The position numbers were made by a program, and so were the translations under genes. A stretch of 64,000 bases of DNA from Candidatus Nomurabacteria bacterium (GTDB lineage Bacteria; Patescibacteriota; Minisyncoccia; Phycocordibacterales; UBA918). Positions 5,795 through 28,403 of the stretch are shown here, one piece after another. Location: positions 11,388-75,387 of the forward strand of contig CP060229.1 of NCBI GenBank assembly GCA_023898585.1. The letters are read 5' to 3'. Position 1 is the stretch's first letter, and each line of letters opens with the position of its first letter. The notes beneath the pieces were generated by a model. The model was not told the origin of the DNA. It worked only from the letters and a program-made list of their open reading frames with translations, and ran no database searches.

Positions 5795-7219
5795 TTAGAC
5801 GGTGAAATTGTTTATTGAGTAAAGACTACTTTCATCCTTTGTCTCTTCGTCTTTTTTAGTGATGTGTGATGGTGGTTGTTCAACAGAATCAGGAGCGACT
5901 CTTTCTTCGGTAGCTGGATTGATCGTGGTAGCTTGATTTTCAATCCTTTGATCATAATCATCACCGCCTAAACCACGAACGACACTTGGTGTTTCCTCCG
6001 GCCTGGTTGCGACTTCCTGTTTTGAATATTCAACAACACTTTTTTGATTTCCGGTCTCTTCAATTTGGTTGTGCTGATTTTGTTCAGCACTGACTGAATA
6101 ATGCCCGCCTATAGTTTGCGACACGATGGTTACGTTTGGTGACCGATATACCGATCCAGGTTCAATCCTGGACACCGCCTGCTTTCCGAACTCAGATGTT
6201 TGTCCTGTTTGATATTGAGTTTGTGACTGCGATGGTTCATCTGCAACTGGCTGTTTCGAAGATTCAGGAACTTCTTGAAGTTGATCTGGTTCTGGAGGTA
6301 AAATTTCACTTTCAGACTTATAATCAGTCTCCAGCGGAGTGTGTTCGGCTAAGTGTTCAGCCATTTCTTTTTGGCCGGTTTCTTTAGCAGACGCTTCGTC
6401 ACTCATTCTCTTCAAGATGGAAGCCAGGTCATCCTCTGAAAAATAGTCGATGGTAAGCTTGCCACCAAAATCGGTTTTTTGAATCTGAACTCTTGTTCCC
6501 AACGTCTCAGTAAATTGTCTCTCAAATTCTATCAAATTGGCATCAAATTCATCGGGGTCTTTCTTTCGCACTTTATCAGTGGCTATTTTTCGGACAATCC
6601 TTTCCACTTCACGAACCGATAATTTTTTAAGCAGGATTTCTTTGTAGACCACCTCCTGTTCTTCCAGACGATCGGAAAGCATGAGTAAAGTTCTCGCGTG
6701 TCCCTCAGTCATATCGCCAAGCTTCAAAGACTCCAACATATGCTCAGGCAAGCCAAGCAAACGAATTGTATTAGACACATATTCTCGACTGCGACCAACT
6801 TTTTTGGCAACTAAAGCGTGAGAAAGACCAAAAACATCCGCTAATTGCTTAAATGCGATCGCTCTATCAACAGCGTTCAAGTCCTCACGCTGGAGATTTT
6901 CTATGATGGCCAACTCCAACTTTTCTTGTTCATTCTGTTCACCTTCTCGAATAATAACCGGGACTTGCAGGACTCCAGCGAGCTTACTGGCTCGCAGACG
7001 TCGTTCCCCGGCGATCAATTCATATTCCGTATAAAATGTCCCGTTTTCCTGCTGAACTTCATTTCTAGTGACGGTGAGTGGCTGAAGCACGCCATACATA
7101 CGAATAGAATCCGCCAGTTCCTGCAGTTTATTTTGGTCGAATTCTCGACGCGGTTGAAAAGGATTGGGGACGATTTTCTCGACCTCTACCCAATAGATTG
7201 AATCTCCCTGAAATGCCAT
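5795..7219 (-). CDS. parB: ParB/Spo0J-family partition protein with long low-complexity C-terminal extension
   Basis: ParB box GERRLRASKLAG and HTH in N-terminal ~280 aa; C-terminal ~190 aa Q/E/S/T-rich. Confidence 0.85.
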   Translation of the reverse strand: MAFQGDSIYWVEVEKIVPNPFQPRREFDQNKLQELADSIRMYGVLQPLTVTRNEVQQENGTFYTEYELIAGERRLRASKLAGVLQVPVIIREGEQNEQEKLELAIIENLQREDLNAVDRAIAFKQLADVFGLSHALVAKKVGRSREYVSNTIRLLGLPEHMLESLKLGDMTEGHARTLLMLSDRLEEQEVVYKEILLKKLSVREVERIVRKIATDKVRKKDPDEFDANLIEFERQFTETLGTRVQIQKTDFGGKLTIDYFSEDDLASILKRMSDEASAKETGQKEMAEHLAEHTPLETDYKSESEILPPEPDQLQEVPESSKQPVADEPSQSQTQYQTGQTSEFGKQAVSRIEPGSVYRSPNVTIVSQTIGGHYSVSAEQNQHNQIEETGNQKSVVEYSKQEVATRPEETPSVVRGLGGDDYDQRIENQATTINPATEERVAPDSVEQPPSHITKKDEETKDESSLYSINNFTV

Positions 7220-7381
7220 AAATAAAAACCAATTAATACCTCCGAGTTCTTACGCTCGATATGGGAACATTCTATCATATTTTACTTATACACAGTCTTT
7301 ATACGAAGTGATATGGTTTTATCTATAGCGGTGACATTCCATTCTGGTTTGTTTTCTGCTACACTCTTGGTACAAAAAAAC

Positions 7382-7466
7382 GCCTCGGTGGTGGAATTGG
7401 TATACACGTACGACTCAAAATCGTATGGCGCAAGCCGTGAGGGTTCGATTCCCTCCCGAGGCACCA
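7382..7466 (+). tRNA. tRNA-Leu (anticodon CAA), CCA encoded
   Basis: Hand-folded: acceptor GCCTCGG/CCGAGGC, anticodon loop CTCAAAA, long variable arm, T-arm GGGTTCGATTCCC. Confidence 0.85.
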
Positions 7467-7579
7467 AAAAACTAGTCTAATCTCTTTTGAATTTGAATCT
7501 GTAGTTTTTTGCTACTTTGTAGTAACATGATTCGACGTCACCTTGGCCAATACAGGCATATCAAAATAAGGAGGAAGAC

Positions 7580-8269
7580 GTGAGCACAACTGTTACAGAA
7601 ATCTGGAAGAGAATAGGTCAAATCGCGGATGTGCATGTTGACCGTCATTTCGTCATCGATAATAAGACTCACAGTAATTGTTTAGTTGACTTGTCCGGTC
7701 TGACTAATCCCGAAAACACTGGATTACTTCGAGAAGTAGCGATTGAGCTATTCAGGAGGACAATTGCGGAAGGAAGGTTTGATACAAACAAGGCAGTCAT
7801 GATGGTCGGCACGGCGTTGCTTGATACAAAATTAGTGGAACTGATGAGGGAAATTAATGAATCAGAACCAATGATTGAGTCGCTCGTGCCAGCGGAAATT
7901 CGTGAGGAAAAGCTCTTTGTCGGCAGTGACCTTGTGAATTCGATCACTCCCGAAACGCAAGTAATCTTGGTTCAAGCCCTACTTCAGGAAATAAAGTCTG
8001 TTAACAAGACGATCGGTTCTGTGATCAGACCTCTAGGATCGGGCGTTCGCGCCATAAGTTCAATTATTGACCAGAGTGGACTGGAAGCAGACGATTTTGG
8101 CGTACCTTTCGTTATTGCTCTTCGGTCAGTGGAAGTTTTACACTTTGATCTCAGTACTGGCACCTGTCCGCTATGTTCAGAAGGTAGACCAATCGTGAAA
8201 AATCGTGGACAAGGTGAAGAGCACAAAAGGCATTTCCCGAAGTACAAAGGGGGGTATATTGATCTTTAA
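7580..8269 (+). CDS. hypothetical protein
   Basis: 229-aa ORF preceded by AGGAGG; no recognisable motif; C-terminal CPLC. Confidence 0.45.
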   Translation: MSTTVTEIWKRIGQIADVHVDRHFVIDNKTHSNCLVDLSGLTNPENTGLLREVAIELFRRTIAEGRFDTNKAVMMVGTALLDTKLVELMREINESEPMIESLVPAEIREEKLFVGSDLVNSITPETQVILVQALLQEIKSVNKTIGSVIRPLGSGVRAISSIIDQSGLEADDFGVPFVIALRSVEVLHFDLSTGTCPLCSEGRPIVKNRGQGEEHKRHFPKYKGGYIDL

Positions 8270-9092: not shown

Positions 9093-10001
9093 ATGGCAGA
9101 ACAGAAACCAAAGATAATCGCCATAGTCGGACCAACCGCCGGTGGCAAAACATCACTTTCGATTGAGGTGGCTCGAAAATTTGGTGGTGAAATTATTTCC
9201 GCCGACTCAAGACAGGTCTACCGTCACTTGAATATAGGTACAGGTAAAGTTACAAAAAAAGAGATGGGTAACATACCCCATCATCTTTTGGATGTCCGAG
9301 AACCGACCGAGGTGTATACGGTAGCTGAGTTTAAGTGCGAAGCAACGCAAGCGATTCAAGAAATCAAAAGCAGAGGTCGTCTTCCTATCATTGTTGGCGG
9401 GACTTTCTTTTACCTCGATTCACTAAGAAATAGAGCTTTCTTTGCTCCGGTAAAACCGGACCTTACTTTCAGAAAGAGTCTGGGTAAATTCACGGATGAA
9501 GAACTTTTTGCAAAACTCAAAAAAGCTGATCCTAAACGTGCGACCAACATTGATAAAAACAACCGCAGACGCCTCGAAAGAGCACTGGAAGTGGTTCGCG
9601 AACTAGGAGTTGTTCCAGATTTAAAAGCTACAGAATCACCCTATGACTGGCTTATTATAGGTTTAAGCGTACCAAAGGAAGAATTACGTGAAAACTTTAA
9701 AAACCGCCTAATAGATTGGCTGGATTTAGGTTTTGAAGAGGAGGTGGGTGAGCTGATAGAAAGAGGCGTCTCAGAGAGCCGGTTTGCTGAATTCGGTTTT
9801 GAATACACTCTCATGCTAACTTTTATTAACAAGGAAATTACCAAAGAAGAGTTGATAGAAAAATTCGTCCAGAAAAACTGGCAATACGCCAAAAGACAGA
9901 TGACGTGGCTGAAACGAGATGGAGAAATAAATTGGTTTGCGCCGGAAAATCGCGAAGCGATTTTCCGGCGCGTTGACGACTTCCTTAATAACAAAAGTTG
10001 A
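9093..10001 (+). CDS. miaA: tRNA dimethylallyltransferase MiaA
   Basis: P-loop IIAIVGPTAGGKTSLS, ADSRQVY motif; start ATG 9093. Confidence 0.9.
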   Translation: MAEQKPKIIAIVGPTAGGKTSLSIEVARKFGGEIISADSRQVYRHLNIGTGKVTKKEMGNIPHHLLDVREPTEVYTVAEFKCEATQAIQEIKSRGRLPIIVGGTFFYLDSLRNRAFFAPVKPDLTFRKSLGKFTDEELFAKLKKADPKRATNIDKNNRRRLERALEVVRELGVVPDLKATESPYDWLIIGLSVPKEELRENFKNRLIDWLDLGFEEEVGELIERGVSESRFAEFGFEYTLMLTFINKEITKEELIEKFVQKNWQYAKRQMTWLKRDGEINWFAPENREAIFRRVDDFLNNKS

Positions 10002-10365: not shown

Positions 10366-11124
10366 ATGACCAATATCACCATGCGCGACTTTGTTGTCTC
10401 AACCAAGTCAGATCATCCACCCAAGATAGTCCTTTCCGTTCCACACGACGGCTTATGGACACAAAATTTTACAGGCCATTTCACACCTCGAGAAAATGGT
10501 GTCGGTGGGTCTGATCGCTTTGTCACACCAATCGCCAACGACATATTAGTCTACTGTCAGGAAAAAGGACTAGGTGTCGATATGATTCGCTTTCTGATGC
10601 CTCGCAGGTACATAGATGCAAATCGTCCAGCACCCGGAATGCGTGACTATGCCAAGTACGAGGAAACTTCCTTTTCTGATGAAAGGCTACGAGTTTACTA
10701 CAATGCGTACTTCGAAGAATTGGAAGCAAGCATAGATCGAGCCATCGCTACGCACGGAAAACAAAATATCTTAGTGCTGGACCTGCACGGTTTCGTACGC
10801 GGACGCCGAGAAGGTCAAGTGACAGACTTTGATGTTGTACTCGGTACCTGCCACCGCAAGACAATCCGGTATGGAGAACCAGACAAGTCTCTTGGAGGTC
10901 ATCTGAGCAAAGCAGGGTTCAATACATTCACCCCCGGAAATGCTGATGTCTTACCAGGTGGTGACCCATTCTATGGCGGATTTATCTCTGAATATGTCGC
11001 CAACGAATACGAGGTAAACGCTATCCAGATTGAGACCGAAAAAAGATTCCGATCTCAAGACGGAGGACTAGTTGGTGCACGGCTTGCACAAACAATCGGT
11101 GACTGGCTAACAGCAACTTTCTGA
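10366..11124 (+). CDS. N-formylglutamate amidohydrolase-family (FGase-like) zinc hydrolase
   Basis: RYIDANR and LDLHGF motifs typical of the FGase fold; AGGAGG RBS upstream. Confidence 0.5.
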   Translation: MTNITMRDFVVSTKSDHPPKIVLSVPHDGLWTQNFTGHFTPRENGVGGSDRFVTPIANDILVYCQEKGLGVDMIRFLMPRRYIDANRPAPGMRDYAKYEETSFSDERLRVYYNAYFEELEASIDRAIATHGKQNILVLDLHGFVRGRREGQVTDFDVVLGTCHRKTIRYGEPDKSLGGHLSKAGFNTFTPGNADVLPGGDPFYGGFISEYVANEYEVNAIQIETEKRFRSQDGGLVGARLAQTIGDWLTATF

Positions 11125-11375
11125 ACTTTAGCCGTTCTTCTTTGAGGAACGGCTTTTTCATACTAAAAACTCCCGCAATACCTGAATACTACTTTTGATA
11201 TACTCCCGCTCCTTGTAGAGTTCTGAAAGCCACGTTTCTTGCCCGCGAGTACTAAAAACAGTCTGGATAGATTGTTTTTGTTGTACGAGCGAGGTCTACG
11301 AGGACTCGAAACCGCGCCACGACAAAGTCCGGAGTCGGAGCAGGTAAAATTAGCAGGTAAACCCCTAACTCGTGT

Positions 11376-12713
11376 CTATTTATAAAATTTTTCAAAATCA
11401 ACCAGACGTTTCTCGTCGTTTATATAAAGCTGTTTCGTTCGTAGTGAAGAAAAGGCATCTAACATTTCAGCATCTGATGGCTTCACGCCTTTACTTAAGG
11501 TACTCACATAAGTACGCCAAGCGTCACCCCCAAAGTGAAAAAGTATCATGCCCCCTTGTCTTCTGTCAGTACCTATAGGCGAGTAATACAAGGTGTGTTT
11601 AAGTCCCTTTTCCATAAAAGCCTCGTGGTACGCCAATTGCTTGGGCAAACAATTAGCCCCATACTCACCAACAATAACCGGTACCTGTTTCGTCGGCAGA
11701 TCGCGTAGAATATCGTTGAATTCAGCAACAAGTATCCGCTTGGCTCTTTTTTTCGTAAATGTTGGGAATAAACCATCAATAACTCCGCACGAACTGGCCG
11801 AATAATTATGAATCGTGTAAGCAAGATTATCGTCAACATCTTCAAGCTTAATTTCATCGCTAGCAAACACATCCAGTTTGGTCGCCCAGTTATCTCCATC
11901 AAGAATAATGAGGTGGTTCTTGTCAACGGAGCGAATAGCCAAGATGACATCTCGATAAAAATTAAGAAGTACCGAGTCACGTTCGGGTGTGTGCGGATAA
12001 TTATTCGGTTCGTTCATGATGTTGTAGCCAAATATAGTCGGCTCGTGAGCATAATACTTTGCCAACATAATCCACAACTCCAGAGTTTTGTCTCTGTATT
12101 CCTTGTCGTGAAAAAACGGTGCTTCATTCACACTGAGCGTAGGGTCACAGTAACTGGCAGAATTTTGACACCCGGGCACGGTTTGAACGTCAAGCATGAT
12201 ATAGGTGTCGTATTCTTTCGCCCAAGCAACAAGTCTGTCTAAATACTGCAAACCTTTGTGTCGTTCATCAAACATCCAGTAGGCGACCGGGACACGAAAT
12301 GTATTAGCTCCCATCTTGGCCAAAGTGAAAATATCCTCTCTGGTATAAAAATTGTCACGCAATTTTTGGTAAAAGAAGTCTCCGTACCCTTCCTCTACAT
12401 TAGTATCTAAAAAGGTCCGAATGGACGGCTCGTGACCGACTCCTCCTAATTGACTCCCATACCCGGCCAGCAACCAATCCTCAACCTGAAGCCAATCCGG
12501 CAAGTTAAACCCTTTTACACGAAAAGGCTCTCCGCCCGGAGCCACAATCTCACCCGCTTCCGCGTGAACAAAGCCGGTTTTTGTGTACGACTGCGTTGGT
12601 TGTCCAAATTGATATTCCATACTATTCAGTCCGTTACTAAATACCGTATAAAAAATCAATATAAGCGTGATTGCAAACACAGTAACTGAAATTCGGTGTA
12701 ATAAACGTCTCAT
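11376..12713 (-). CDS. secreted/membrane-anchored glycoside hydrolase family 5 (cellulase-like)
   Basis: N-terminal signal-anchor helix; GH5 acid/base NEP motif (GYNIMNEPNN) and nucleophile motif VIVGEYG. Confidence 0.75.
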   Translation of the reverse strand: MRRLLHRISVTVFAITLILIFYTVFSNGLNSMEYQFGQPTQSYTKTGFVHAEAGEIVAPGGEPFRVKGFNLPDWLQVEDWLLAGYGSQLGGVGHEPSIRTFLDTNVEEGYGDFFYQKLRDNFYTREDIFTLAKMGANTFRVPVAYWMFDERHKGLQYLDRLVAWAKEYDTYIMLDVQTVPGCQNSASYCDPTLSVNEAPFFHDKEYRDKTLELWIMLAKYYAHEPTIFGYNIMNEPNNYPHTPERDSVLLNFYRDVILAIRSVDKNHLIILDGDNWATKLDVFASDEIKLEDVDDNLAYTIHNYSASSCGVIDGLFPTFTKKRAKRILVAEFNDILRDLPTKQVPVIVGEYGANCLPKQLAYHEAFMEKGLKHTLYYSPIGTDRRQGGMILFHFGGDAWRTYVSTLSKGVKPSDAEMLDAFSSLRTKQLYINDEKRLVDFEKFYK

Positions 12714-12739: not shown

Positions 12740-13654
12740 TTAATATATGGAGAAATGACCGCCTGTTATATGGCCATATCCAGAATCAGAACTGCAATAA
12801 GCTTCCACGCCAGCAGCCCGAGCGGCGTCTCTTTCTGCACAATCTTGGGTTTCGTATACGGCTCTACGCCCAGAAGCAGAAGCTGCGGAATGAATGCTGG
12901 TTATGTTAGACAGCGAGCATTTTCCTGAGTTATCAGCCGGACGGCAGTCAATGTCGACGCAAGTTCCATTTCGATGGCAGGCATTGGTGTGCCCGATTTC
13001 AGTTCCTGCCGTAACAACCACTCCACACTCTGGACAAGCCAGGTGAATATCAACAATATCCTCTACAGTTTCAGTTTGCATTCCGGCCAATCCGGTACAT
13101 TGACGTTGTGACGGGTCGGTACACTCGCCACTAGCTAGTACAACAATACCTTCATCGTCAAATCTCCCTTTCACCCAACTCTCTGATCTACCTGTCCCTA
13201 CCCCCAAGGGAGGCTGACTTCCACTCAACTTAACCGGCCTTGGCGCCTGAGAAGCAGTCAACGAACTACACTCAATCTTCGACCAAAACAATTTTCCGTC
13301 AATCCTGCCGTCACCACCTATCAAAAGTCCTTTCATGACAGTATCAACCATAAGCCAGGCCGCCAAAACGATAATGATACCGATAATAGCGTTGGCTATC
13401 ATGTTTTTAGCGTCTTCTTTGGCTCCCGGATTACCGCCAGAAGTGACCAACTTAAAACCAGCTACCACAATGAGTACAGCAAAGACAACCATCAAAACTC
13501 CGATCAACCATTTTACGATTCCGTTCGCCATTTGTACGAAATGACACTCGGTACACATGGGTTCTCCGGCTCCGCCACAGGTTACGAAGTCGGCGAAGAC
13601 AAGAGTTGGGAGGAGGGTGAGGGTAAGTAGTATGTATAACTTTGCGTGTTTCAT
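12740..13654 (-). CDS. secreted pilin-like (TrbC/VirB2-like two-helix) module fused to Cys-rich C-terminal domain (possible cell-wall hydrolase)
   Basis: Signal peptide, then two hydrophobic helices with GGNPGAKEDAK loop identical to the paralog at 13684..14703; C-terminal 150 aa Cys/His-rich (GHTNACHRNGTCVDID, SGYGHITGGH). Confidence 0.6.
   Translation of the reverse strand: MKHAKLYILLTLTLLPTLVFADFVTCGGAGEPMCTECHFVQMANGIVKWLIGVLMVVFAVLIVVAGFKLVTSGGNPGAKEDAKNMIANAIIGIIIVLAAWLMVDTVMKGLLIGGDGRIDGKLFWSKIECSSLTASQAPRPVKLSGSQPPLGVGTGRSESWVKGRFDDEGIVVLASGECTDPSQRQCTGLAGMQTETVEDIVDIHLACPECGVVVTAGTEIGHTNACHRNGTCVDIDCRPADNSGKCSLSNITSIHSAASASGRRAVYETQDCAERDAARAAGVEAYCSSDSGYGHITGGHFSIY
13265..13626. 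repeat. 362-bp perfect direct repeat, copy 1 (covers the 5' coding part of the pilin-hydrolase gene)
   Basis: By-eye base-for-base identity with 14314..14675. Confidence 0.8.
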
Positions 13655-13683
13655 AAAGTTTAAGCAATTATCGACAGTGTGTC

Positions 13684-14703
13684 TTAACCCTTTAATTTTT
13701 CCGATACGTCACCCACCTTTTTTACATAAGATCTGGTTTCTATATAGCCGGTATTCGGAACACAATCGGTCTTGCCTGTATTATAACAGCCGTCAGAATT
13801 CCATTCACATTCCCACCGCATCAACCCAGGACAATTTTTACTAGGTTCGTTGGCACCTTTACCTCCGTTATATCCAGCATAAATTTTCCTTTCGTCGCCC
13901 TCATAAGCTTTATATAAATCAGCGTAAATCTTTGCCCCGAGACCGATGTTATAATTATCATCATCGCGCAATTTTTGACTTATTTCAGCATCACTCAAAT
14001 TTTTTAGAGCCGGATCATATCCCCTTGCTGTCCCGGGCATTATCTGCATACAGCCCTGTGCACCAACGGGACTTGTTTTACTTCGACAACCACCCGACTC
14101 CACTCTCATCAAAGCTTGCAAATTCCTGGTTTGTTCCGCGTCTAATCCAGCCAAAGCTGCCGCTTGAACAACTTTATCGTCTGGCGCTGTTAGAGATGCT
14201 ATCGATGCTATTTGAGCCGGAGTCAGAGTTCCTTTGGCAGGGTCATAAGCAGTTCCGCGTGAGGCGTCCGGTGTAGGGTGAACAATTTTGGGTGGAAATG
14301 TTTGCGCCATCACACTACACTCAATCTTCGACCAAAACAATTTTCCGTCAATCCTGCCGTCACCACCTATCAAAAGTCCTTTCATGACAGTATCAACCAT
14401 AAGCCAGGCCGCCAAAACGATAATGATACCGATAATAGCGTTGGCTATCATGTTTTTAGCGTCTTCTTTGGCTCCCGGATTACCGCCAGAAGTGACCAAC
14501 TTAAAACCAGCTACCACAATGAGTACAGCAAAGACAACCATCAAAACTCCGATCAACCATTTTACGATTCCGTTCGCCATTTGTACGAAATGACACTCGG
14601 TACACATGGGTTCTCCGGCTCCGCCACAGGTTACGAAGTCGGCGAAGACAAGAGTTGGGAGGAGGGTGAGGGTAAAAAGAGTTAGGAGAAGCGAATATTT
14701 CAT
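13684..14703 (-). CDS. secreted pilin-like (TrbC/VirB2-like) module fused to SLT-family lytic transglycosylase domain
   Basis: N-terminal 120 aa identical to paralog; C-terminal SLT motifs RVESGG, GCMQIMPGTA, AGYNGG. Start set at MKYSLLL (ATG 14703). Confidence 0.7.
   Translation of the reverse strand: MKYSLLLTLFTLTLLPTLVFADFVTCGGAGEPMCTECHFVQMANGIVKWLIGVLMVVFAVLIVVAGFKLVTSGGNPGAKEDAKNMIANAIIGIIIVLAAWLMVDTVMKGLLIGGDGRIDGKLFWSKIECSVMAQTFPPKIVHPTPDASRGTAYDPAKGTLTPAQIASIASLTAPDDKVVQAAALAGLDAEQTRNLQALMRVESGGCRSKTSPVGAQGCMQIMPGTARGYDPALKNLSDAEISQKLRDDDNYNIGLGAKIYADLYKAYEGDERKIYAGYNGGKGANEPSKNCPGLMRWECEWNSDGCYNTGKTDCVPNTGYIETRSYVKKVGDVSEKLKG
14314..14675. repeat. 362-bp perfect direct repeat, copy 2
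   Basis: Identical to 13265..13626; divergence begins immediately outside both ends. Confidence 0.8.
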
Positions 14704-14878
14704 ATAAATAACCAATGGGGTGACAACTTATAAAAATGTTTTACTAACAAACAAGCTGATTGTATTAAAATCACTAACATGAAAATGATAGCACAACAAA
14801 ACTTCCAAAATCGCTTGAGATGTGATATTTTGTTCGCACTCAAGAGTATTCCAATACTTTGAGTTTCAGATTTAATTT

Positions 14879-15401
14879 GCGTCGGTGGAGTAGTATAGGC
14901 AAACTGCTTTGCTTATACTCCGGTCACAAGCTATGCTTGTGAGGCGACGTTGTGAGCATTTGCAAATCAGGGTGAATCAGTTTGGGAAACTGATTCGCGG
15001 GGGCCCGACACCCGCGATTGCCACGCGTTAGCATGACGTTCAAAATTTTATTTGCGTCGGTGGCGGAGTGGATGAGAAATGAAATGTTTCATTTCTCATC
15101 CGTTCTGCGAGCGATAGCGAACAGATTGGTCAATGTGAACGAAAGTGAACAGACCAAAGGAGGACAATGTAATTGATCACGGAGAAACCGTGCAAAATAA
15201 ATTGTCTTTCTACGAAATACAATTTATTTTGCGTCGGTGGCGGAGTGGACAGAAAGTGAACAGTTTCACTTTCTGTCTGATCTGTCGCTTGCGACAGAAT
15301 TGCCGATGTTTATGAGGCAATAAGAGGACAATGAAATTGACCGCGTTTATGTCGCAGAGTTTCTGATGATATAAATGGAGTCAATTCACACAAAATTCAA
15401 C
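14879..15401 (+). repeat. three tandem ~175-bp units each starting with the tRNA-Tyr 5' end (TTGCGTCGGTGG(C)GGAGT) followed by a perfect hairpin; decayed tRNA-Tyr duplicates
   Basis: Units start at 14879, 15052 and 15232 with the same upstream AAATTTATTTTGCGTCGGTGGCGGAGTGGA context as the intact tRNA at 15404. Unit 2 retains the D-loop TGGTCAAT. Confidence 0.7.
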
Positions 15402-15403
15402 TT

Positions 15404-15489
15404 GCGTCGGTGGCGGAGTGGTCAATCGCATTAGACTGTAAATCTAACGGATTTATCCTACGCAGGTTCAAATCCTGCCCGGCGCACCA
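15404..15489 (+). tRNA. tRNA-Tyr (anticodon GTA), class II, CCA encoded
   Basis: Acceptor GCGTCGG/CCGGCGC, anticodon loop CTGTAAA, long variable arm GGATTTATCC, T-arm GCAGGTTCAAATCCTGC. Confidence 0.85.
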
Positions 15490-15631
15490 ATATTGAACTT
15501 GTCGGCTCAAAACCGACGGACGAGTGGGCGGCACGAAGTGCCGCCCACTGCGTTGGGGCATAAACAGAGCCGTTTTGCGGCGCGTCGCCTGCGGCGACAG
15601 CGACGACTTTTCCGCCGAGGCGGAGGTGCGA
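15484..15631. repeat. left 148-bp inverted repeat (GC-rich, internally hairpinned)
   Basis: Exact reverse complement of 18332..18479; contains hairpin AGTGGGCGGCAC-GAA-GTGCCGCCCACT. Confidence 0.8.
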
Positions 15632-15881: not shown

Positions 15882-16658
15882 TTAAGACACCTTTTGCAAG
15901 TCTTTTAATAATACCTCATGTTGGTCTCTAAACAACCGAGGTGGTACTTTTAAGACGGAGTGGATGCGTTTTTGATTGTAATAATTAATCGTCTGATAAA
16001 TAGTAGCCACTAACTCACCGAGAGTATCAAACCGGTTTGGGTCACCTAAGTCCAATTTGAACCCTTTATAGAAACTCTCTTGGTAACCATTCTCCCAGGG
16101 ACAACCGGGGGCACTCATGGACTGTTTGATACCAAGCTTTTGGGTTAAGGCAGTGTAGTCTTTTGAGCAGTACTCACTCCCTTGATCGGAATGAATAATC
16201 CGTGGAGGAGCTCGATGGAGCACTGCTGAAGCCAAAGCGTTAATGACGAGCTGTGTCTGATGTGTTGTCAATATCGATACACCAACTATCTCTCTAGTGT
16301 ACGTATCGAGTACTGTAGCCACATACAACCACTTTCCTCGATATTTAAGATAGGTGAAGTCTGAGGCATATATATCACCTGGCCCTCGTGGTTCCTCACT
16401 CATTAAATAGTTGGGAAACACACTACCTTTAGGCTTTCTATAGACTTTTTTGGCTGTTCTTCGATAAGGTTTGATGTCAAAGAGTTTCATCACCCGTAGC
16501 ACCTTCTTCTTGTTCATCTTGAGGTGTTGCGATAACCGTTTGTGTCCGTACCCTGGATGCTCACGAAGAGCCGTCTCAATCTGTTGCTTGGTGTGCCAAT
16601 CCTTTTGAGGTTGTTTATGGTGATAATAGTGATGCGTACGTGAATAACCGATCACCAT
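15882..16658 (-). CDS. IS3-family transposase OrfB (DDE integrase core)
   Basis: rve-like DDE domain: YASDFTYL, HSDQGSEY, ESFY..FK motifs. Confidence 0.8.
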   Translation of the reverse strand: MVIGYSRTHHYYHHKQPQKDWHTKQQIETALREHPGYGHKRLSQHLKMNKKKVLRVMKLFDIKPYRRTAKKVYRKPKGSVFPNYLMSEEPRGPGDIYASDFTYLKYRGKWLYVATVLDTYTREIVGVSILTTHQTQLVINALASAVLHRAPPRIIHSDQGSEYCSKDYTALTQKLGIKQSMSAPGCPWENGYQESFYKGFKLDLGDPNRFDTLGELVATIYQTINYYNQKRIHSVLKVPPRLFRDQHEVLLKDLQKVS

Positions 16659-16927
16659 CCCTTGGAGAGCCCCTTTTTAGCCTCAATGGACATTTTTATG
16701 GTGAGGTCACCGATGATTTGTTTGAGTTGTTCGTTTTCCTTCTTGAGTTTGTTGTGTTCAAGGAGACTGACCGTACCCGTGGCCTTTGTACCTAGCCAAT
16801 CATAAATGGTTCGACTACTGATGCCGTATTGGTTGGCAGTATCACTAACACTCAAGCCTTCGTGTTTGATTTTATTGATAACTTCTTCTTTGATCTCAGC
16901 TGATATCTTGTATCCTTTCTTGGACAT
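16652..16927 (-). CDS. IS3-family transposase OrfA (HTH)
   Basis: 91-aa HTH protein with leucine-zipper-like C-terminus; overlaps orfB. Confidence 0.8.
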   Translation of the reverse strand: MSKKGYKISAEIKEEVINKIKHEGLSVSDTANQYGISSRTIYDWLGTKATGTVSLLEHNKLKKENEQLKQIIGDLTIKMSIEAKKGLSKGW

Positions 16928-18331
16928 ATTGCTTGTATTGTTTAAGTGATAATACTTGCAAAAGTTGTCTTAAGAAAGGGGTACCTTTCAGATAAGCAAG
17001 TGCTTTCGATAGATGCACAGCTCACCGAGTTGCGGGCGTTTGCTCGGGAGCAAGGTTTGCAGATCGTAGAGGAATTTGTTGAGAAGCAATCTGCCAAGTC
17101 TCTTGGGCGCCCTATCTTTGGTGAGATGCTTGAACGGATAGAGAGTGGTGAAGCACAAGGTATCGTGTCATGGGCGCCCGATCGCCTCGCCCGCAATTCC
17201 GTCGATGGAGGTAGGGTGATCTATCTCCTCGACACTGGCAAACTTGCGAGCCTCAAATTTCCAACCTTCTGGTGTGACAATACCAGTCAAGGAAAATTTA
17301 TGCTCTCTATGGCATTTGGACAAAGCAAATACTATGTTGATTCTCTTTCCGAAAATACGAAACGCGGACTGCGCCAAAAAGTCCGTATGGGGCATTGTCC
17401 GAGTTTAGCTCCTGTGGGGTATATCAACGATGTTCGAACAAAGACTATTACTGTGGACAAAAAGCGTTCCAAGATAATCAAGCAAGTATTTCAAGAGTAT
17501 GTTAAAGGCAACATGCGACTGGAAGATGTGGCGGACTTTTTGGCACACTCCGGCGTTACCACCAGAACCGGAAAAAGAATCTCCAAGACCAAGGCGTCTT
17601 TTATCCTCTCCAACCCCTTCTACATCGGTTTGTTCAAGTACGGTGGTGAACTCCACGAAGGCAAGCACGAGCCAATCATTGCAAAGAAACTGTTTGATGA
17701 AGCGCAGGCAGTTTTGAAACGCCGTGGACAACCAGACCGCAAACCCAAGAATGAACCGCAGCCATACTGCGGACTCATTTCCTGCGCTTCCTGCGGGATG
17801 ATGATCACTGCCGAGAACAAAACGAAGCGACAGAAGAATGGAAACGTGCATCACTATGTGTATTATCGGTGTACGAAAAAATCTAAGACACAAAGGTGTA
17901 CTGAAATGTCGCTTCGCTCTGAAGAAATGGATCGGCAGGTATCATCACTTATCAAATCGGTTTCTTTGCCCACAGACTGGGCGGAGGAATTGAATCGCGT
18001 GGCGATAGTCGAACACAAAACCTCCGCCCACTCTGCGACGCGTCTCGTGAAAGAGAAGGAGGAGAACATACAAACCATTGCGATCAAACTAGAGCGACTT
18101 TTGAATGGTTACCTCGATCAAGTGATTGATGAGCAAGATTATCGCACGCAAAAAGCAAAACTGCTCTCCGAAAAGAAGTCACTCGAAGGTGAAATTACTT
18201 CTCTTTCACACCACGCGAATGATTGGCTCGCACCTTTCGAGGATTGGCTAAAAGACGCTATGGACTTGGACAAAATCGCTTCTGATAGTAACCTTTTTGC
18301 CAAAAAGGTTACCGCCAAAGAAATCTTTGGC

Positions 18332-18479
18332 TCGCACCTCCGCCTCGGCGGAAAAGTCGTCGCTGTCGCCGCAGGCGACGCGCCGCAAAACGGCTCTGTT
18401 TATGCCCCAACGCAGTGGGCGGCACTTCGTGCCGCCCACTCGTCCGTCGGTTTTGAGCCGACAAGTTCAATATTGGTGC
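18332..18479. repeat. right 148-bp inverted repeat
   Basis: Reverse complement of 15484..15631; last 6 bp are the tRNA-Leu ...TGGTGC (CCA end). Confidence 0.8.
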
Positions 18480-18563
18480 CCGGGGCGGGAATTGAACCCG
18501 CACGCCACTTTGAATAGCAAGGGATTTTAAGTCCCTCGTGTCTACCGATTTCACCACCCGGGC
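18474..18563 (-). tRNA. tRNA-Leu (anticodon TAA), class II, CCA encoded
   Basis: Minus strand: GCCCGGGTGGTGAAATCGGTAGACACGAGGGACTTAAAATCCC...GGGTTCAATTCCCGCCCCGGGCACCA. Confidence 0.85.
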
Positions 18564-19341: not shown

Positions 19342-20430
19342 TTACCCACCGTACGAAAGTGCAAACATGCGACCACTAGCGACAGATTGTACCGCTCGGC
19401 TGATTCTGTCGGCCTCTTCTTGGGCACTCTCCGCAATTTGCATTTTTTGTTTAGCGTCCTTCTGAAGATCCTCTTCCTTTTGTTTAAGCAAAGAAACCAG
19501 TTCTCCACACAAATCCTTATACGTTCTCTCCAGCTCCTGAATTTCTTCCATCTTAAACCGGATTATGTCATCGAGAGTAGCACCTGCTTTGACCAACTTA
19601 CCTTTCTTGGGACCCTTCTTGCTCTCAAACCCCTCCGGCAACTTCCCAGAAGTAAGAACTCTGAGCCCAATCTCAGTAACACCGAGAATATCACCATTAT
19701 CCTTATTTACAGAAACTAGCGGTTGGTTAACTTTATACAGCGAAGCCAACCACCTACCTACAGTCCCATTGATAGCAAGCCTTTCCTTACTCTTTATAAA
19801 ACGAGACAAAGGGGAATGCATGACGTGATTGTTGGTAAACATACCTCTCGATAAAGACTGTCCTTTGTTGTCACGTATCGATTGGTAGACCAAACTCAGT
19901 ATTGCGATCACGCATTTAGCGTTTGTCTTCGTCTGCATTGTGGCTACATCAGACAAATCAGGTATCGTGAATTCGAGACTATAATCAGTTATTATCTCTG
20001 ATTTTGGTTCGACTACCGGCAATACTTCCTCTTCCTCCCTATCAAGACCTATATCGAGAGACTCATCAATCTCTGTACCAATCTTCGGTAACTTGTTAAT
20101 TCTGAGAACCGAAGGATCTTCGACAAAAACCTTTCTTGACTCGTAAAACTTAAACACTCCCTTGGCCGGTAGTGCCCTTATTCTGTTTTCCAGATCATCA
20201 AGAGATTGGGCCAGAGCGACTTTGTCACCGGGTTGAAAATTTTTGCGGTCTATTTCACCAATATCCATCAAGCTATGGAATATGCTTAATACTGGCAGAC
20301 CATCATCTTTTTCAGCTTTACTGGCATTGTCGTACGCTAGCGCAATACCCCATACAAGACCCATTTCTTGTCTGTTAAAAACGAAGGGTTTACCAAGCTG
20401 AGGCCTGACTTCAAACTTTTCTTCGTGCAT
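19342..20430 (-). CDS. hypothetical protein with C-terminal coiled-coil
   Basis: 362-aa ORF; no recognisable catalytic motif; K/E-rich coiled-coil near C-terminus. Confidence 0.5.
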   Translation of the reverse strand: MHEEKFEVRPQLGKPFVFNRQEMGLVWGIALAYDNASKAEKDDGLPVLSIFHSLMDIGEIDRKNFQPGDKVALAQSLDDLENRIRALPAKGVFKFYESRKVFVEDPSVLRINKLPKIGTEIDESLDIGLDREEEEVLPVVEPKSEIITDYSLEFTIPDLSDVATMQTKTNAKCVIAILSLVYQSIRDNKGQSLSRGMFTNNHVMHSPLSRFIKSKERLAINGTVGRWLASLYKVNQPLVSVNKDNGDILGVTEIGLRVLTSGKLPEGFESKKGPKKGKLVKAGATLDDIIRFKMEEIQELERTYKDLCGELVSLLKQKEEDLQKDAKQKMQIAESAQEEADRISRAVQSVASGRMFALSYGG

Positions 20431-22397: not shown

Positions 22398-23729
22398 ATG
22401 AAAAAATGGTTTGAAGTTGCAGAGAATTGGGTGACTATAAATGTCATCCCGCGCATAAAAACTTTCAGAAGGAAAAAAAGTGTTGGGGCTTCAAAAGTTG
22501 TAGATGGTGTACCTTACCGAAAACATCACGGACTGATTATAAACCCTGTGTGGCTAAACATGTTTTGGAGACCTGTCATAAGTACTTTTATTGGAGCTTT
22601 GATAGCTCTAATAATCTGGATACTGTTTGGTTTAGAATTATCGAACCAAAGATTGTTCTGGGGAACAGCCTTGTTAGCATGTGTAATAATCGCGAGTACT
22701 TTATGGGAGTATCCGGAGACACAGCATATACCCAAAAAAAAGTTTGCTATACTGAGCATTTGGGGCATGCGCATTTCTGTATACTTCTCTGAAGGACGCT
22801 ATGACTGGTCGCTAAGAAAATTTGGTATCCGAATAGAGAAGGACGAGCCAAACGACAGTGCGGCTGTTGACGAGAGCGGTTATCTGCATCGAAAAGCATT
22901 TACGTTCAGAGTCTACAATAATGCTGATTTCGAGAAAGAAAAAGGTCCGGAATACAACATTTTGTCAACTGCAAGCAATGGTGCTGAGGTTAGTTCTAAC
23001 GTCACCGCAAACGTATGTTTCTTTAATGCCAAGCGTTGGCAGGATCACGAGGATCCAAATCAACTTCTTGGAGAAACACTGCGGGACGCTCACCGCTCGT
23101 CAGTAAGGTTTTTCCAGGACAAAAACGCTGCTAAACTAGGCAACGTATTTGACCAGTTGCTGATGCAAAAAACCATCCTTGTCGCGTACCGATCTGACAC
23201 AGGGTCAGTCGTACAAGACCGGGGTAATCATCCTATGTTTTTAGCAGTAGAAGTAGCAGAGCCAGAGGATAAACTCAAAGAAAGTGTCACACTGTTCAGA
23301 AATGGTCTGGCAGATAAAGGTAAACAGGATGACTTGGACAATGTGCACAGAAATAAAGAGAACGAGCTTGAGGTTCATATGTTGAGTGTTAGTAACATCC
23401 TACGTAACCCGCTTGAAACTCTTGGTATATATTTCGAAGGAGTGAAGGTGGCAGATGCTATCGCCTCGGAAGAGGTACGAAAGCAAGCCAACCGAGCATC
23501 TGGAGAAGACTATCAACTGGAAAGCAACGTGAAAAGCGCTGAAGCTTATAGCAAATCCCTTGGAATAAGAAGGACAGCTTCTGAAGATACTTCTGAGTTC
23601 CTGCAGGCGCTGACTGCAGCTGAAGATTCCGAAAGGGTTCATGCTGTAGGTATAGGCGGAGGAAATAAGATAGCGCAAGCAGCAGCAACACACGCAATAC
23701 TTTCAAAAAATGAAGGAGATAGGAAGTGA
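22398..23729 (+). CDS. membrane protein with SPFH/band-7-like domain
   Basis: Two N-terminal TM helices, then pattern resembling stomatin/flotillin (AILSIWGMRIS; NILSTASNGAEVSSNVTANVCFF; A/E-rich C-terminal helix). Weak. Confidence 0.4.
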   Translation: MKKWFEVAENWVTINVIPRIKTFRRKKSVGASKVVDGVPYRKHHGLIINPVWLNMFWRPVISTFIGALIALIIWILFGLELSNQRLFWGTALLACVIIASTLWEYPETQHIPKKKFAILSIWGMRISVYFSEGRYDWSLRKFGIRIEKDEPNDSAAVDESGYLHRKAFTFRVYNNADFEKEKGPEYNILSTASNGAEVSSNVTANVCFFNAKRWQDHEDPNQLLGETLRDAHRSSVRFFQDKNAAKLGNVFDQLLMQKTILVAYRSDTGSVVQDRGNHPMFLAVEVAEPEDKLKESVTLFRNGLADKGKQDDLDNVHRNKENELEVHMLSVSNILRNPLETLGIYFEGVKVADAIASEEVRKQANRASGEDYQLESNVKSAEAYSKSLGIRRTASEDTSEFLQALTAAEDSERVHAVGIGGGNKIAQAAATHAILSKNEGDRK

Positions 23730-25069
23730 ATAATACTGAAAAACTCAAAAACCTGCTATCGAAAAACTTGGTGATAATACCCATATTTTTCATTGCTTCG
23801 TATCTTGTTGCAACGGGGATTTTGCAGGAGTTCACTGAATCTCCTGCAAACCAACCGACGCAAAAAGAAATTGTACAAAAAAAGACTCCGGCAACGGAAA
23901 GAAGGACTTTATCTGGATCACAAAAACTTGCGGTAGTACATACAGAAAAGAACGAATGGTCTTTTTTAGCACTGTTCATAGCAGCCGGTCTGACGTTTTT
24001 TGTCGCGATACTACGCGGTGGATGGGATGCTAAAACAGATTACCCGCTAGTGGCGAGAATACTGTTTTACACTACCGCCGGTGCATTGATTGTTGTTTTT
24101 ATCTCATTTTTGTTTTTTGGCGAAGAAACCACCGAGGATGTAATCACAGAAGCAAGAGAAGCGGCACGACAGTCAGCAAGGGAAAATCTGCTCGGGGAAT
24201 CTTTCAGTAAGTATTTCGACACCACAAACGGATACCCGCGGAAAATGGTCGATCCAGGAGACAACTACAGGATTGTGGAGAAGTGGAACGGCAAGGATGC
24301 CACTCCGGAAAATTGTCTGCCTGAATTTCAGGTTAACGGAGTAACAATGAGAGCACCTCTCGTCTACCCGAAAGGCCATGAAAAAGAAGGACAGTTGTTT
24401 GACTTCGCCAACAATGGAAGGTGTCGTTCTGGCGTTAATGGTCAGAGACTTATACCCATAACACCAGAAATGGTGAAGGAGCGTAGTCTAGAAGTAAAGG
24501 TCGCTAAGGCGTGGGAGGTGGCAAGGGAGAATCCATGGATTGCAGGAGCGGTGGTGGTGTTGATACCACTGTTCCTGTGGAGGATATTCGGGTCTGGGAA
24601 ATCAGGTGAGACAAAGCCGGCAAAACGATCGACAGCACTGGATGTGTTGATCATAGTTGTTGTACTAGGCCTAATCCTGTTTACCCTCGATCGGACCGGC
24701 ACCCTAGGCAAAGTGTTGCCTTGGGCCGGAACGGTAAGGGCGACGGAGTCGGTGGAGCAAAGGAATTGCTACACCGACGATATGTCAAGCAAAATCAGGT
24801 TTGGCGAGAAAGGACAGACCATTCTGATCTGCGATGGTCAGGGCACGGTCAGACTGATCGCTGAATATGGACATGACGACCTTCGGCTAAGCATACCTAA
24901 GAATTTCAGTGAGGAGACCGGCATTACTGCCTGGAAAAATCACATGGAACTTAAAAGGGACGCTTACAGGAACACGTTCCGCTGGTACCTCGAACCCTTT
25001 AAGAATGCCGTCGACAAAAACGGCAGAACTGTTCAGGCGATACCGGTGACGATAACAGCCACCAGATAA
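23726..25069 (+). CDS. polytopic membrane protein, hypothetical (possible partner of SPFH protein)
   Basis: ATGA start overlap with upstream gene; about five hydrophobic helices. Confidence 0.45.
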   Translation: MNNTEKLKNLLSKNLVIIPIFFIASYLVATGILQEFTESPANQPTQKEIVQKKTPATERRTLSGSQKLAVVHTEKNEWSFLALFIAAGLTFFVAILRGGWDAKTDYPLVARILFYTTAGALIVVFISFLFFGEETTEDVITEAREAARQSARENLLGESFSKYFDTTNGYPRKMVDPGDNYRIVEKWNGKDATPENCLPEFQVNGVTMRAPLVYPKGHEKEGQLFDFANNGRCRSGVNGQRLIPITPEMVKERSLEVKVAKAWEVARENPWIAGAVVVLIPLFLWRIFGSGKSGETKPAKRSTALDVLIIVVVLGLILFTLDRTGTLGKVLPWAGTVRATESVEQRNCYTDDMSSKIRFGEKGQTILICDGQGTVRLIAEYGHDDLRLSIPKNFSEETGITAWKNHMELKRDAYRNTFRWYLEPFKNAVDKNGRTVQAIPVTITATR

Positions 25070-25431: not shown

Positions 25432-25809
25432 TTAGTTACAAGCTCTGGTGGCTGAATCCAGATCGCCACTCAAGCCAAAGGTATTGGCAGCGATAGCAAG
25501 GATGGTGAAGGCGGAAAGCATCACCACTAGCCCAATGATGCCGTAGGTGATGTGCTTGACGCCATCTTGTCTTGCTTGATCATTCGTTGCATTCATAAAA
25601 TACTGCCCGCAACCCCAAAGAAACACCAAAAAAGCAACAGCCGATAGTAGAGCGATGGTGGGATAAAGAATAACATCATTTAACTTAGCAACGAAACAAG
25701 CAGCTTGATTAGCAGCCTGGTCGGAAGGAGTTTGAGCAAATAAAGCGATGGGCAGAATGATCAGACCGGAAATTGTCGAAACTAAATACGAGACCTTATT
25801 AACTTTCAT
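25432..25809 (-). CDS. pilin-like two-helix membrane protein (TrbC/VirB2-like family), paralog A, with signal peptide
   Basis: Signal peptide, then helix-loop-helix with WGCGQYF...ITYGIIGLVVML motif shared by the family. Confidence 0.6.
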   Translation of the reverse strand: MKVNKVSYLVSTISGLIILPIALFAQTPSDQAANQAACFVAKLNDVILYPTIALLSAVAFLVFLWGCGQYFMNATNDQARQDGVKHITYGIIGLVVMLSAFTILAIAANTFGLSGDLDSATRACN

Positions 25810-26013
25810 TAGAATAGTTTATCACAAAGCAAAATGGTACAACCGGATAATTCACCGCCAAACCACCGCCCACGGTCGCGACCATTATTCTCCAGCTCAG
25901 GGGCAGTCCTCGGACTGAAAAACAACAGAGAGGAGTGAAACGAAAGTGAATGATACCAAAAAAGCCGCTTCGCGGCTTTTAAAGAGGGTACCTGCACCTG
26001 TGCTGTCTTATCG

Positions 26014-26409
26014 CTATGTCTGCTGTTTATTGGGGCCAGTAGGAATATCTGGAGCAGTCTTACCCTGAAGACCAGTACTTGATGAGAGAAGATTAATGAT
26101 TCCCCAGAAGATAATAATCAAAACGAAACCGAGGGTAGCATAAATCATCAGATTTTTACCCGATTCTTTTGCTTCCTCGTTGGCACCTCCAGCAATAAAG
26201 TAACGAAACATTCCCCAGACAAAGACCAAGAAACCTATTGCTAGAATAAATGGGATTAATACACCATTGGCAAATTTTACCAGGTCTGTTAACAGCTCGC
26301 CAAAAGGCCCAGCGTCGGTTGGAAGAACCTTTTGTGCGGTTTGTGCAAAAGTCATTAGAGGAAGCAAAAGCAAACCGACACCACTGACTGAATAAATAAT
26401 TTTTTTCAT
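26014..26409 (-). CDS. pilin-like two-helix membrane protein, paralog B
   Basis: IPFILAIGFLVFVWGMFRYFIAGGANEEAKESGKNLMIYATLGFVLIII. Confidence 0.65.
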   Translation of the reverse strand: MKKIIYSVSGVGLLLLPLMTFAQTAQKVLPTDAGPFGELLTDLVKFANGVLIPFILAIGFLVFVWGMFRYFIAGGANEEAKESGKNLMIYATLGFVLIIIFWGIINLLSSSTGLQGKTAPDIPTGPNKQQT

Positions 26410-26437
26410 AATCTTTTGTATATGTGGATAATTAAAA

Positions 26438-26821: not shown

Positions 26822-26923
26822 ACGTATTTTACAAAACTTATAACGTTATAACGTTTACATTTAATTATAGTTCATACGTAATAACAAAACGATGAACTAT
26901 CCACAATGGAAATTGAGTATTGG

Positions 26924-27322: not shown

Positions 27323-27397
27323 ACTTATTATTTTCGAAAATATTATGTTAATACTATACATCAGAATGTTGAATTGTAAATAGCTAGATGTGTTTTT

Positions 27398-27652: not shown

Positions 27653-27680
27653 AAAATGAATTTGGTTACCGATTACTTTA

Positions 27681-27941: not shown

Positions 27942-27981
27942 AGATGAATTTGAATTTGATAAATTTACCTTTATGAAGTGG

Positions 27982-28377: not shown

Positions 28378-28403
28378 AATCAATAAACAACCTAACACTT
28401 ATC

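Follow-up and report, generated by a model that had tools for sequence, protein, structure and literature searches.

Two adjacent genes in a 64,000-nucleotide stretch of a Candidatus Nomurabacteria chromosome (contig CP060229.1; the whole stretch is called the window here) raise an unusual question: why should two predicted secreted proteins, whose C-terminal parts bear no resemblance to each other, share an N-terminal part that is identical to the last base? We call the two open reading frames (ORFs) ORF A and ORF B. By sequence comparison, they form a two-gene cassette that is conserved in Parcubacteria-type bacteria of the Candidate Phyla Radiation (CPR). Our reading is that the cassette encodes paired cell wall hydrolases built on a pilin-type hairpin, that the pair would be directed to a type IV secretion system (T4SS), and that the hairpins are kept alike by gene conversion. 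We hold this reading as a whole with moderate confidence, and its parts differ in strength.

We found that the shared segment is an exact direct repeat of 362 nt with an offset of 1049 nt (Table 1). Just outside either end of the repeat, 20-nt blocks are no more than 10-55% identical, which is the background level. ORF A and ORF B lie next to each other on the minus strand, each with one copy of the repeat, and residues 11-130 (120 amino acids) are identical between them, with the same numbering if ORF B begins at its ATG. Both the exact extension of the repeat and the residue check agree with the first-pass annotation, which had reported, from the letters of the DNA, a perfect 362-bp repeat and an identical 120-residue N-terminus in two adjacent proteins. 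ORF B has an alternative TTG start that would give a protein of 343 amino acids (13684-14715), and the ATG at 14703 is more probably the start. NCBI annotation uses internal Met starts for both genes (263 and 298 amino acids). These are likely misannotated because they cut off the signal peptide and the Cys motif that are kept in orthologues.

The shared N-terminal part is a pilin-type module. Both proteins matched the Pfam family T4SS_pilin (PF18895, a VirB2-like family), with E-values of 5e-12 for ORF A and 6e-12 for ORF B and scores of 46.2 and 45.9 bits, above the gathering cut-off of 26.6 bits. The earlier description of this unit as pilin-like therefore stands for both proteins. The module consists, in order, of a signal peptide, a Cys stretch (C26, C34, C37), helix 1, a loop (TSGGNPGAKEDAK), helix 2 and the sequence WSKIEC129. 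Read from the sequence, the N-terminus is a cleavable signal peptide, with cleavage between MKHAKLYILLTLTLLPTLVFA and DF (…LLPTLVFA, then DF). In an alignment of 98 relatives, C26 and C34 were invariant and C37 and C129 were nearly so. AlphaFold2 predicted a helical hairpin, with helices at positions 16-51 and 56-93 of a 115-residue query (ORF A residues 21-135). The predicted local distance difference test score (pLDDT) was 75 overall and 83-91 within the helices, and lower toward the ends. NCBIfam gave a sub-threshold match of the module to the Mbov_0395 pilin-like conjugal transfer protein of mycoplasma integrative and conjugative elements (E 7e-8). The nearest non-fused relatives of the hairpin are stand-alone proteins of 140-160 amino acids that carry the same Cys motif.

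The arrangement of the module bears on where the C-terminal parts (the heads) would act. Since a cleaved signal peptide is followed by two membrane passes, the enzyme heads after C129 would lie outside the cell, on the outer face of the membrane. Disulfides on this face, we infer, hold the two ends of the module together. The 10 cysteines in the ORF A head and the 6 in the ORF B head fit with an extracytoplasmic location.

The head of ORF B is a predicted family-1 lytic transglycosylase, which would cut glycan strands. It matched Pfam SLT (PF01464) with an E-value of 9.8e-15 and a score of 54.6 bits (cut-off 21.3). The motifs ESGG, GCMQIMPGTA and AGYNGG begin at residues 202, 217 and 276 of ORF B, and the codons for the catalytic E202-S203 begin at 14098-14100. 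Residues E202, S203, Q220, Y278, N279 and G281 were invariant among 48 ORF B orthologues, and the Cys-rich tail 3' of the SLT domain was likewise conserved. Full-length orthologues of ORF B make up at least 65 clusters at 40-62% identity, and in nearly all of these both Pfam domains are present.

The head of ORF A matched no existing Pfam family. Apart from T4SS_pilin, there was no significant Pfam match for ORF A, and the models Peptidase_M15, M15_3, M15_4, VanY and HH_signal gave no match to ORF A or its two closest homologues at E-values up to 10. A profile made from three head sequences was unhelpful when compared with Pfam and PDB (LysM14_C, E 0.01; beta-glucosidase, E 0.64). A word-indexed homologue search with the head returned only 3 proteins, and an exhaustive profile search returned 840 cluster representatives at E≤1e-3, 103 of them at E≤1e-10. 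Three orthologues (P0002, P0003 and L001_X) have the same architecture as ORF A.

Conserved residues and a structural model place this head among the LAS (Hedgehog/DD-peptidase) zinc peptidases. In an alignment of 50 head relatives, H222 and D234 were invariant, and H227, G230 and H300 were present in at least 90%. The motif H-x6-D (H227-x6-D234) together with the distal H300 makes up a predicted zinc triad. An AlphaFold2 model of the head, based on the 50-sequence alignment, had a pLDDT of 91.5 and a predicted template modelling score (pTM) of 0.86. A Foldseek search with the head agreed weakly with the LAS fold (E 0.03), and the 50-sequence profile matched ShhN, the N-terminal part of Sonic hedgehog (Shh), by sequence (E 0.005). 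In the profile alignment, VTAGTEIGH222TNACH227RNGTCVD234 of ORF A stands opposite VTEGWDEDGHHSEESLH141YEGRAVD148 of Shh, which pairs H227 with H141 and D234 with D148. In Shh, zinc is bound by H141, D148 and H183, and H-x6-D is a DD-peptidase signature (PMC6027127). An hhalign comparison of the head with a fusion that bears HH_signal covered the motif only (probability 44%). Most relatives of the head end in E-x-x-H-W-D, similar to VanX, and the subgroup that includes ORF A ends in GH295ITGGH300FS.

Based on the motif and the model, we suggest that the ORF A head has a LAS zinc-peptidase fold and would cut the peptide part of the wall. Because no existing Pfam family model matches it, we class the head as a new family of the LAS superfamily. 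We are highly confident in the enzyme assignments of both heads, a lytic transglycosylase and a LAS zinc peptidase, as predicted from their catalytic signatures. The first-pass annotation had named an SLT lytic transglycosylase and "possibly a metallopeptidase", quoting the motifs ESGG (E202), GCMQIMPGTA, AGYNGG, CHRNGTCVDID and GYGHITGGHFSIY, all of which we located. Both proposals hold. The profile check of the C-terminal domains that it called for was positive with Pfam SLT for ORF B and negative with Pfam M15-type models for ORF A.

We found that the two genes have kept company in other genomes. A pilin-SLT gene followed by a second pilin-fusion gene occurs at the same chromosomal site in four further loci (L001, on a 977-kb contig; L007, on a 389-kb contig; L008; and L009), with clpB on one side and miaA-parB-relA-topA-dprA on the other. 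The head of the second gene is of the new LAS type in L001, L007 and L008 and has a weak match to Peptidase_M15_3 in L009. Other loci carry half of the pair: the peptidase fusion without the SLT fusion in L004/L005, and the SLT fusion alone, in another gene context, in L010 and L011. (L006 is the same organism as the window.) In one protein of 508 amino acids (P0172), the hairpin, an SLT domain and a LAS-like domain are joined in one chain. Such a Rosetta-stone fusion is an argument for joint action of the two activities. A scan of genome contigs with the SLT-fusion alignment gave, among the matches listed, generic SLT genes of Proteobacteria and no CPR locus. We rejected a mobile-element origin of the cassette: an IS3-type transposase and a serine recombinase are encoded 1.2 kb away, and the core-gene neighbours are the same in genomes that do not have these elements.

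The hairpin also carries many other heads. Of 51 further hairpin fusions, 18 had the new LAS head, 4 Peptidase_M15_3, 4 VanY, 2 M15_4, 1 HH_signal and 1 PF18896, and several of the remainder gave sub-threshold hints of VanY, M15_4, CHAP or NlpC/P60. Conversely, PF18895 was present in 89 of the 149 best relatives of the LAS head. One LAS-like domain lies within a 2193-residue subtilase/PG_binding_1 protein, and the LAS head family also occurs on one WXG100 protein. This variety of heads on one hairpin agrees with the suggestion, made from the window alone, that enzymatic heads are shuffled onto a common unit. In four relatives (P0201, P0205, P0219 and P0280), an extra domain of 280-480 amino acids precedes the hairpin and a LAS head follows it; one of them has a bacterial surface Ig-like domain. 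The hairpin can thus occupy the middle of a larger surface protein.

The identity of the two hairpins is very probably the product of ongoing or recurrent gene conversion, as judged from sequence comparisons among pairs. In L001, L008 and L009, the hairpins within a pair are 43-57% identical and there is no DNA repeat. Hairpins cluster by gene type: those of the peptidase type are 58-82% identical among themselves and those of the SLT type 54-80%. The shared module of the window is 55-61% identical to peptidase-type modules of other genomes, compared to 49-51% for SLT-type modules. Most likely, then, the peptidase gene was the donor and the SLT gene (repeat copy 2) the recipient; the donor is ambiguous from single comparisons and clearer with the modules of the four paired genomes.

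The same kind of event appears to have happened elsewhere. L007 has its own perfect repeat of 499 nt (6022-6520 and 7186-7684), which runs from 24 nt 5' of the start codon to four codons past the conserved Cys. Its module is of the peptidase type and is 62% identical to that of the window. A metagenome scan with the head profile yielded 6 short loci, one of which is a third homogenised pair. There, the first 101 nt of one contig (L092) equal the hairpin end and linker of the downstream peptidase fusion, with the SLT domain between, and in a sister sample a 116-kb contig (L093) breaks off at the opposite edge of that module; this repeat is at least 101 nt long, being cut by the contig end. In total, hairpins were homogenised in 3 of 6 independent tandem pairs. 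In a rough neighbour-joining tree of SLT heads, ORF B grouped with the SLT gene of L007 and with three more SLT genes whose hairpins are of the peptidase type, and four others were scattered. This pattern is no more than suggestive of a module that was replaced early, with conversion going on afterwards and some events happening independently. On their 3' side, the tracts end at or just past the junction of module and linker. These ends need no selective explanation because homology stops at this junction.

Of the two origins first considered for the repeat, recent duplication or gene conversion, only conversion survives. We rejected a recent tandem duplication because syntenic pairs with diverged hairpins exist in L001, L008 and L009, and the pair is old. 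Concerted evolution by conversion is familiar from duplicated tuf genes and from the pilE/pilS pilin cassettes of Neisseria. The hairpins described here are like these in that a perfect tract, bounded by unrelated sequence, is shared by neighbouring paralogues, and here the process recurs independently across lineages. Unlike pilE/pilS, conversion here homogenises a module of two differing enzymes and brings no antigen diversification.

What might such a pair do? We propose that the two proteins share a chassis in which a Sec signal peptide is followed by a short stretch rich in Cys and then by a PF18895 two-helix hairpin that ends in a conserved Cys. As extracytoplasmic peptidoglycan hydrolases, the ORF B head would cut glycan and the ORF A head would cut peptide. 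Beyond anchoring, the hairpin would deliver both enzymes to the site where PF18895 pilins are handled, that is, where the T4SS or pilus is assembled, and the wall would be opened locally at this site. In a lineage that mostly lacks separate VirB1 genes, the pair would take the functional place of VirB1. By conversion, the hairpin of the peptidase gene most likely overwrote that of the transglycosylase gene.

The link to type IV secretion draws on what is known of these pilins. PF18895 comprises the VirB2-like pilins of Patescibacteria T4SSs, which are encoded in arrays of 2-11 genes, and most genomes with VirB2-like pilins are without VirB1 (PMC12102498). In Southlakia epibionticum, the T4SS locus is essential (PMC10633639). 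In this locus, a lysozyme-like/cysteine-protease protein (SEML1_0006) and a protein of 1113 amino acids with a C-terminal Hedgehog/DD-peptidase fold (SEML1_0007) adjoin the VirB4 gene SEML1_0008 (PMC10633639, Tables S1 and S2), and the same locus encodes the PF18895 pilins SEML1_0014-0019 (PMC10633639). Three ingredients that lie close together in Saccharibacteria, namely a glycan cutter, an enzyme of Hedgehog/DD-peptidase fold and PF18895 hairpins, are thus found here in fused form, which supports the link. We put forward a T4SS-linked role of the pair tentatively, as a prospect at slightly less than even chances, and it rests partly on the S. epibionticum locus.

Several observations weigh against this reading. 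Pfam models for VirB4, VirD4, VirB6 and PrgI-like proteins matched none of the scanned ORFs of at least 120 amino acids in the window, and no T4SS core family was found in the 6-10-kb flanks of L001, L004 and L007-L010. The cassette sits instead among housekeeping genes. NCBIfam, the sole library used that is able to hold a VirB1 model, had none that matched the SLT head. The first-pass annotation had called the fusion VirB2-VirB1-like: the likeness is upheld for family and activity, and fails for T4SS genes nearby and for a VirB1-specific model. The fused hairpin is 25-32% identical to the pilins of a stand-alone array 11 kb away (Table 1), and the four-Cys motif is not evident in the array, so co-assembly with these pilins is not evident either. 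When PDB was searched by Foldseek with the hairpin model, all matches were helical and non-specific (best E 1.0), with no pilin among them; two-helix hairpins are uninformative in such a search. The catalytic Glu of the LAS fold (E177 of Shh, or that of E-x-x-H) has no obvious counterpart in the ORF A head, and without it the activity or mechanism of ORF A may differ. The direction of conversion rests on 8-12 identity points and the rough neighbour-joining tree. Finally, activity, topology and metal binding are predicted here from sequence and models only. As to the distance from T4SS genes, proximity to virB4 is not universal, since a pilin gene lies near virB4 in only 1135 of 1948 assemblies (PMC12102498).

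The main rival is that the two proteins are housekeeping autolysins tethered to the membrane, with the hairpin a mere anchor, which remodel the cell's own wall during growth and division and have nothing to do with a T4SS. The gene neighbourhood fits this well: in five genomes the cassette lies among core genes (clpB ... miaA, parB, relA, topA, dprA), with no T4SS gene nearby. The best NCBIfam hints for the SLT head, all sub-threshold, were to the flagellar-assembly transglycosylase and Slt70 rather than VirB1, and the fused hairpin forms a Cys-bearing subfamily of its own, apart from the stand-alone array. It is less clear, if the hairpin merely anchors, why so many hydrolase heads should sit on it instead of on an ordinary single-pass anchor, why hairpins should repeatedly be homogenised within pairs, or why stand-alone Cys-bearing hairpins of 140-160 amino acids should exist, which make the hairpin a unit in itself. 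The Saccharibacteria T4SS locus, moreover, unites the same fold types. We consider the autolysin explanation rather unlikely, and prefer delivery of the two enzymes to a T4SS or pilus assembly site.

Two further alternatives give the fusions a place in the pilus itself. They might be true minor pilins, extracted by the T4SS and built in with the stand-alone pilins, so that the pilus drills through the wall of a host; conversion would then keep both hairpins fitting one assembly machine. We find both the role and this purpose of conversion improbable. Slightly less probable still is that the fusions are host-directed weapons, displayed as minor T4SS pilus subunits with their heads on the pilus surface or tip and the GH5 glycoside hydrolase alongside. 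The C-terminus of the hairpin would face outward, as inferred from the signal peptide and two helices; CPR bacteria are largely epibionts in which the T4SS and pilin arrays are essential, with a role that is unexplained (PMC10633639, PMC11665869); and the LAS head family occurs on large secreted proteins and on a WXG100 protein, as is typical of exported effectors. A signal-anchored GH5 is also encoded directly downstream here. However, the GH5 gene is absent in relatives, the cassette lies outside a T4SS locus, there is no evidence that PF18895 proteins polymerise, and a head of 170-210 amino acids on each subunit would be hard to pack.

It is very improbable that the perfect repeat is an artefact of assembly or polishing, or that it goes back to a tandem duplication in the very recent past after which a head was replaced: the window does come from a metagenome-assembled genome, and consensus polishing can wipe out small differences between near-identical copies, but an independent assembly is in agreement over every unique flank and is interrupted exactly at the repeat, contigs of two genomes from other projects break at repeat borders, and the two-gene layout is ancestral, with hairpins diverged in L001, L008 and L009. 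The independent assembly, which is of the same organism (GCA_020428745.1), has a 10.3-kb contig that matches the window from 14338 to 8740 with one mismatch, reads through copy 1 and ends 24 nt inside copy 2. A short-read assembler would be expected to break in this way at a true two-copy repeat, which argues against an artefact, as does the same kind of repeat in two unrelated genomes. Polishing could have erased a few differences between the copies.

Table 1. Features of the cassette and its surroundings, in coordinates of the window.
Feature	Position	Strand	Details and basis
ORF A, fusion of pilin hairpin and predicted LAS-type zinc peptidase	12740-13654	-	304 aa; Pfam T4SS_pilin and orthologues
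ORF B, fusion of pilin hairpin and predicted lytic transglycosylase	13684-14703	-	339 aa from ATG (MKYSLLL...)
Repeat copy 1	13265-13626		In ORF A, codons 10-130: part of signal peptide and whole pilin module, to one codon past Cys129
Repeat copy 2	14314-14675		In ORF B; exact repeat extension
Mature pilin module, ORF A	13268-13591	-	aa 22-129
Mature pilin module, ORF B	14317-14640		Same residues as in ORF A
SLT catalytic domain of ORF B	13849-14127	-	Pfam; residues 197-289 of 343-aa form
Predicted Hedgehog/DD-peptidase (LAS) fold domain of ORF A	12743-13183	-	C-terminal, ~aa 158-304
Predicted zinc ligand H227 of ORF A	12974-12976	-	
Predicted zinc ligand D234 of ORF A	12953-12955	-	
Predicted zinc ligand H300 of ORF A	12755-12757	-	
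GH5 glycoside hydrolase gene	11376-12713	-	N-terminal signal anchor; Pfam Cellulase, E 8e-30
Five stand-alone PF18895 pilin genes	25432-28398	-	125-145 aa; 11 kb from cassette; Pfam E 4e-9 to 9e-8

The cassette is followed by a GH5 gene. The three genes are transcribed in the order B, A, GH5, with gaps of 29 nt between B and A and 26 nt between A and GH5, and scans with promoter and terminator consensus sequences between them found nothing above shuffled expectation. The GH5 gene is probably co-transcribed with ORF A. Its signal anchor and its adjacency had been noted before and are correct; the word "upstream" was not, since the gene is 3' of the pair in the direction of transcription. It is present in L006 and absent from the syntenic loci L001 and L007-L009. 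A divergent gene resembling N-formylglutamate amidohydrolase (within 10366-12713) is also absent from these four. The two genes are a lineage-specific insertion between the cassette and miaA. Rfam identified tRNAs alone at the cassette, adjoining it. In L001, short direct repeats with an ACTAAGT core (9658-9726 and 11984-12132) lie on either side of the cassette.

The window as a whole is CPR chromosomal DNA, with dprA, topA, relA/spoT, parB, miaA, gyrA, an S1 gene, ftsA and ftsZ. The five pilins of the array are 24-60% identical among themselves. Three ORFs beside the array (19342-20430, 22398-23729 and 23726-25069; 362, 443 and 447 amino acids) had no match in Pfam or NCBIfam. Small unassigned ORFs of 62-86 amino acids lie between the array genes, a gene for a solute-binding protein adjoins the array, and no T4SS ATPase is encoded nearby.

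Other repeats and a region of distinct composition lie elsewhere in the window. An inverted repeat of 170 nt (15462-15631 and 18332-18501; 97% complementary) surrounds a 2.7-kb segment. The minus strand of this segment has IS3-type transposase ORFs (15882-16927), and its plus strand encodes a large serine recombinase (16946-18517). The left arm of the repeat starts in the 3' end of tRNA-Tyr (15404-15489), and the right arm in that of the minus-strand tRNA-Leu(taa) (18474-18563). The segment may be an invertible or integrated element. Four direct repeats at 14866-15489, starting at 14866, 15041, 15218 and 15391 (spacing ~175 nt), each contain the first 18 nt of tRNA-Tyr (GCGTCGGTGGCGGAGTGG). 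Only the last of the four was recognised as a tRNA by ARAGORN and Rfam, and at least two of the earlier copies (15041 and 15218) run into inverted repeats that can form hairpins. The region 48000-52300 has a G+C content of ~0.50, compared to ~0.43 elsewhere, and encodes a MacB-type permease, an ABC ATPase and an HlyD-type adaptor. An IS200-like transposase gene (47013-47678) lies just upstream, and the region may have been acquired horizontally.

The individual families in the cassette are already known, and public records name the proteins "pilin", "hypothetical protein" or "lytic transglycosylase domain-containing protein". In the literature searched, including papers on Patescibacteria T4SSs, we found no account of fusions of a VirB2-like hairpin to hydrolases, of this LAS family, or of the conversion. 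The closest relatives are the PF18895 pilin arrays (Wang et al. 2023, PMC10633639; Quinonero-Coronel et al. 2025, PMC12102498), which belong to the same family and have the same signal peptide and two-helix hairpin. The pilins described there are small and stand-alone and at most 54% identical within arrays. In contrast, the two fusions of the window have an enzyme of 170-210 amino acids, a four-Cys motif, a location far from T4SS genes and 100% hairpin identity.

In combining a transglycosylase with a peptide hydrolase at the membrane, the pair resembles enzymes of known T4SSs: VirB1 of Gram-negative systems and, in Gram-positive ones, the bifunctional enzymes PrgK of pCF10 and TraG of pIP501 (SLT and CHAP), which are anchored in the membrane (PMC12102498). 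P0172, like PrgK and TraG, unites both heads in one chain. The cassette differs from PrgK and TraG in that its activities are divided between two proteins, its genes lie outside a T4SS operon, the anchor is a pilin-type hairpin instead of a plain transmembrane segment, and the predicted peptide cutter is a LAS zinc peptidase instead of a CHAP cysteine peptidase. Relatives of the ORF A head within the LAS superfamily are ShhN and bacterial Hh-like proteins (PMC6027127), MepA, VanX, VanY/LdcB, SEML1_0007 and the phage L-alanyl-D-glutamate peptidases (T5, RB49, Ply500, LysB4). From these it is set apart by its 10 cysteines, an N-terminal sub-domain with the pattern SSGxCxDxxxxxCTxLxG, the ending GHITGGHFS, and the lack of E-x-x-H or H-x-H.

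In the one genetically tractable Patescibacterium, the T4SS and its VirB2-like pilin arrays are essential, and their role is described as completely unknown (PMC11665869). A pair of hydrolases on a pilin hairpin gives a testable answer to the question of where the missing VirB1 activity may reside, and the widespread fusions suggest that the hairpin is a targeting module. The ORF A head belongs to a sizeable branch of the Hedgehog/DD-peptidase superfamily that had not been catalogued, represented by the clusters found in the exhaustive profile search, and the repeat offers a clean natural case of recurrent conversion that is limited to a single module shared by two different enzymes. Should the walls of hosts be their target, the enzymes would be candidate tools of the epibiotic lifestyle. 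And if the fusions were minor pilins, the essential T4SS and pilin system of the Patescibacteria would gain a concrete job.

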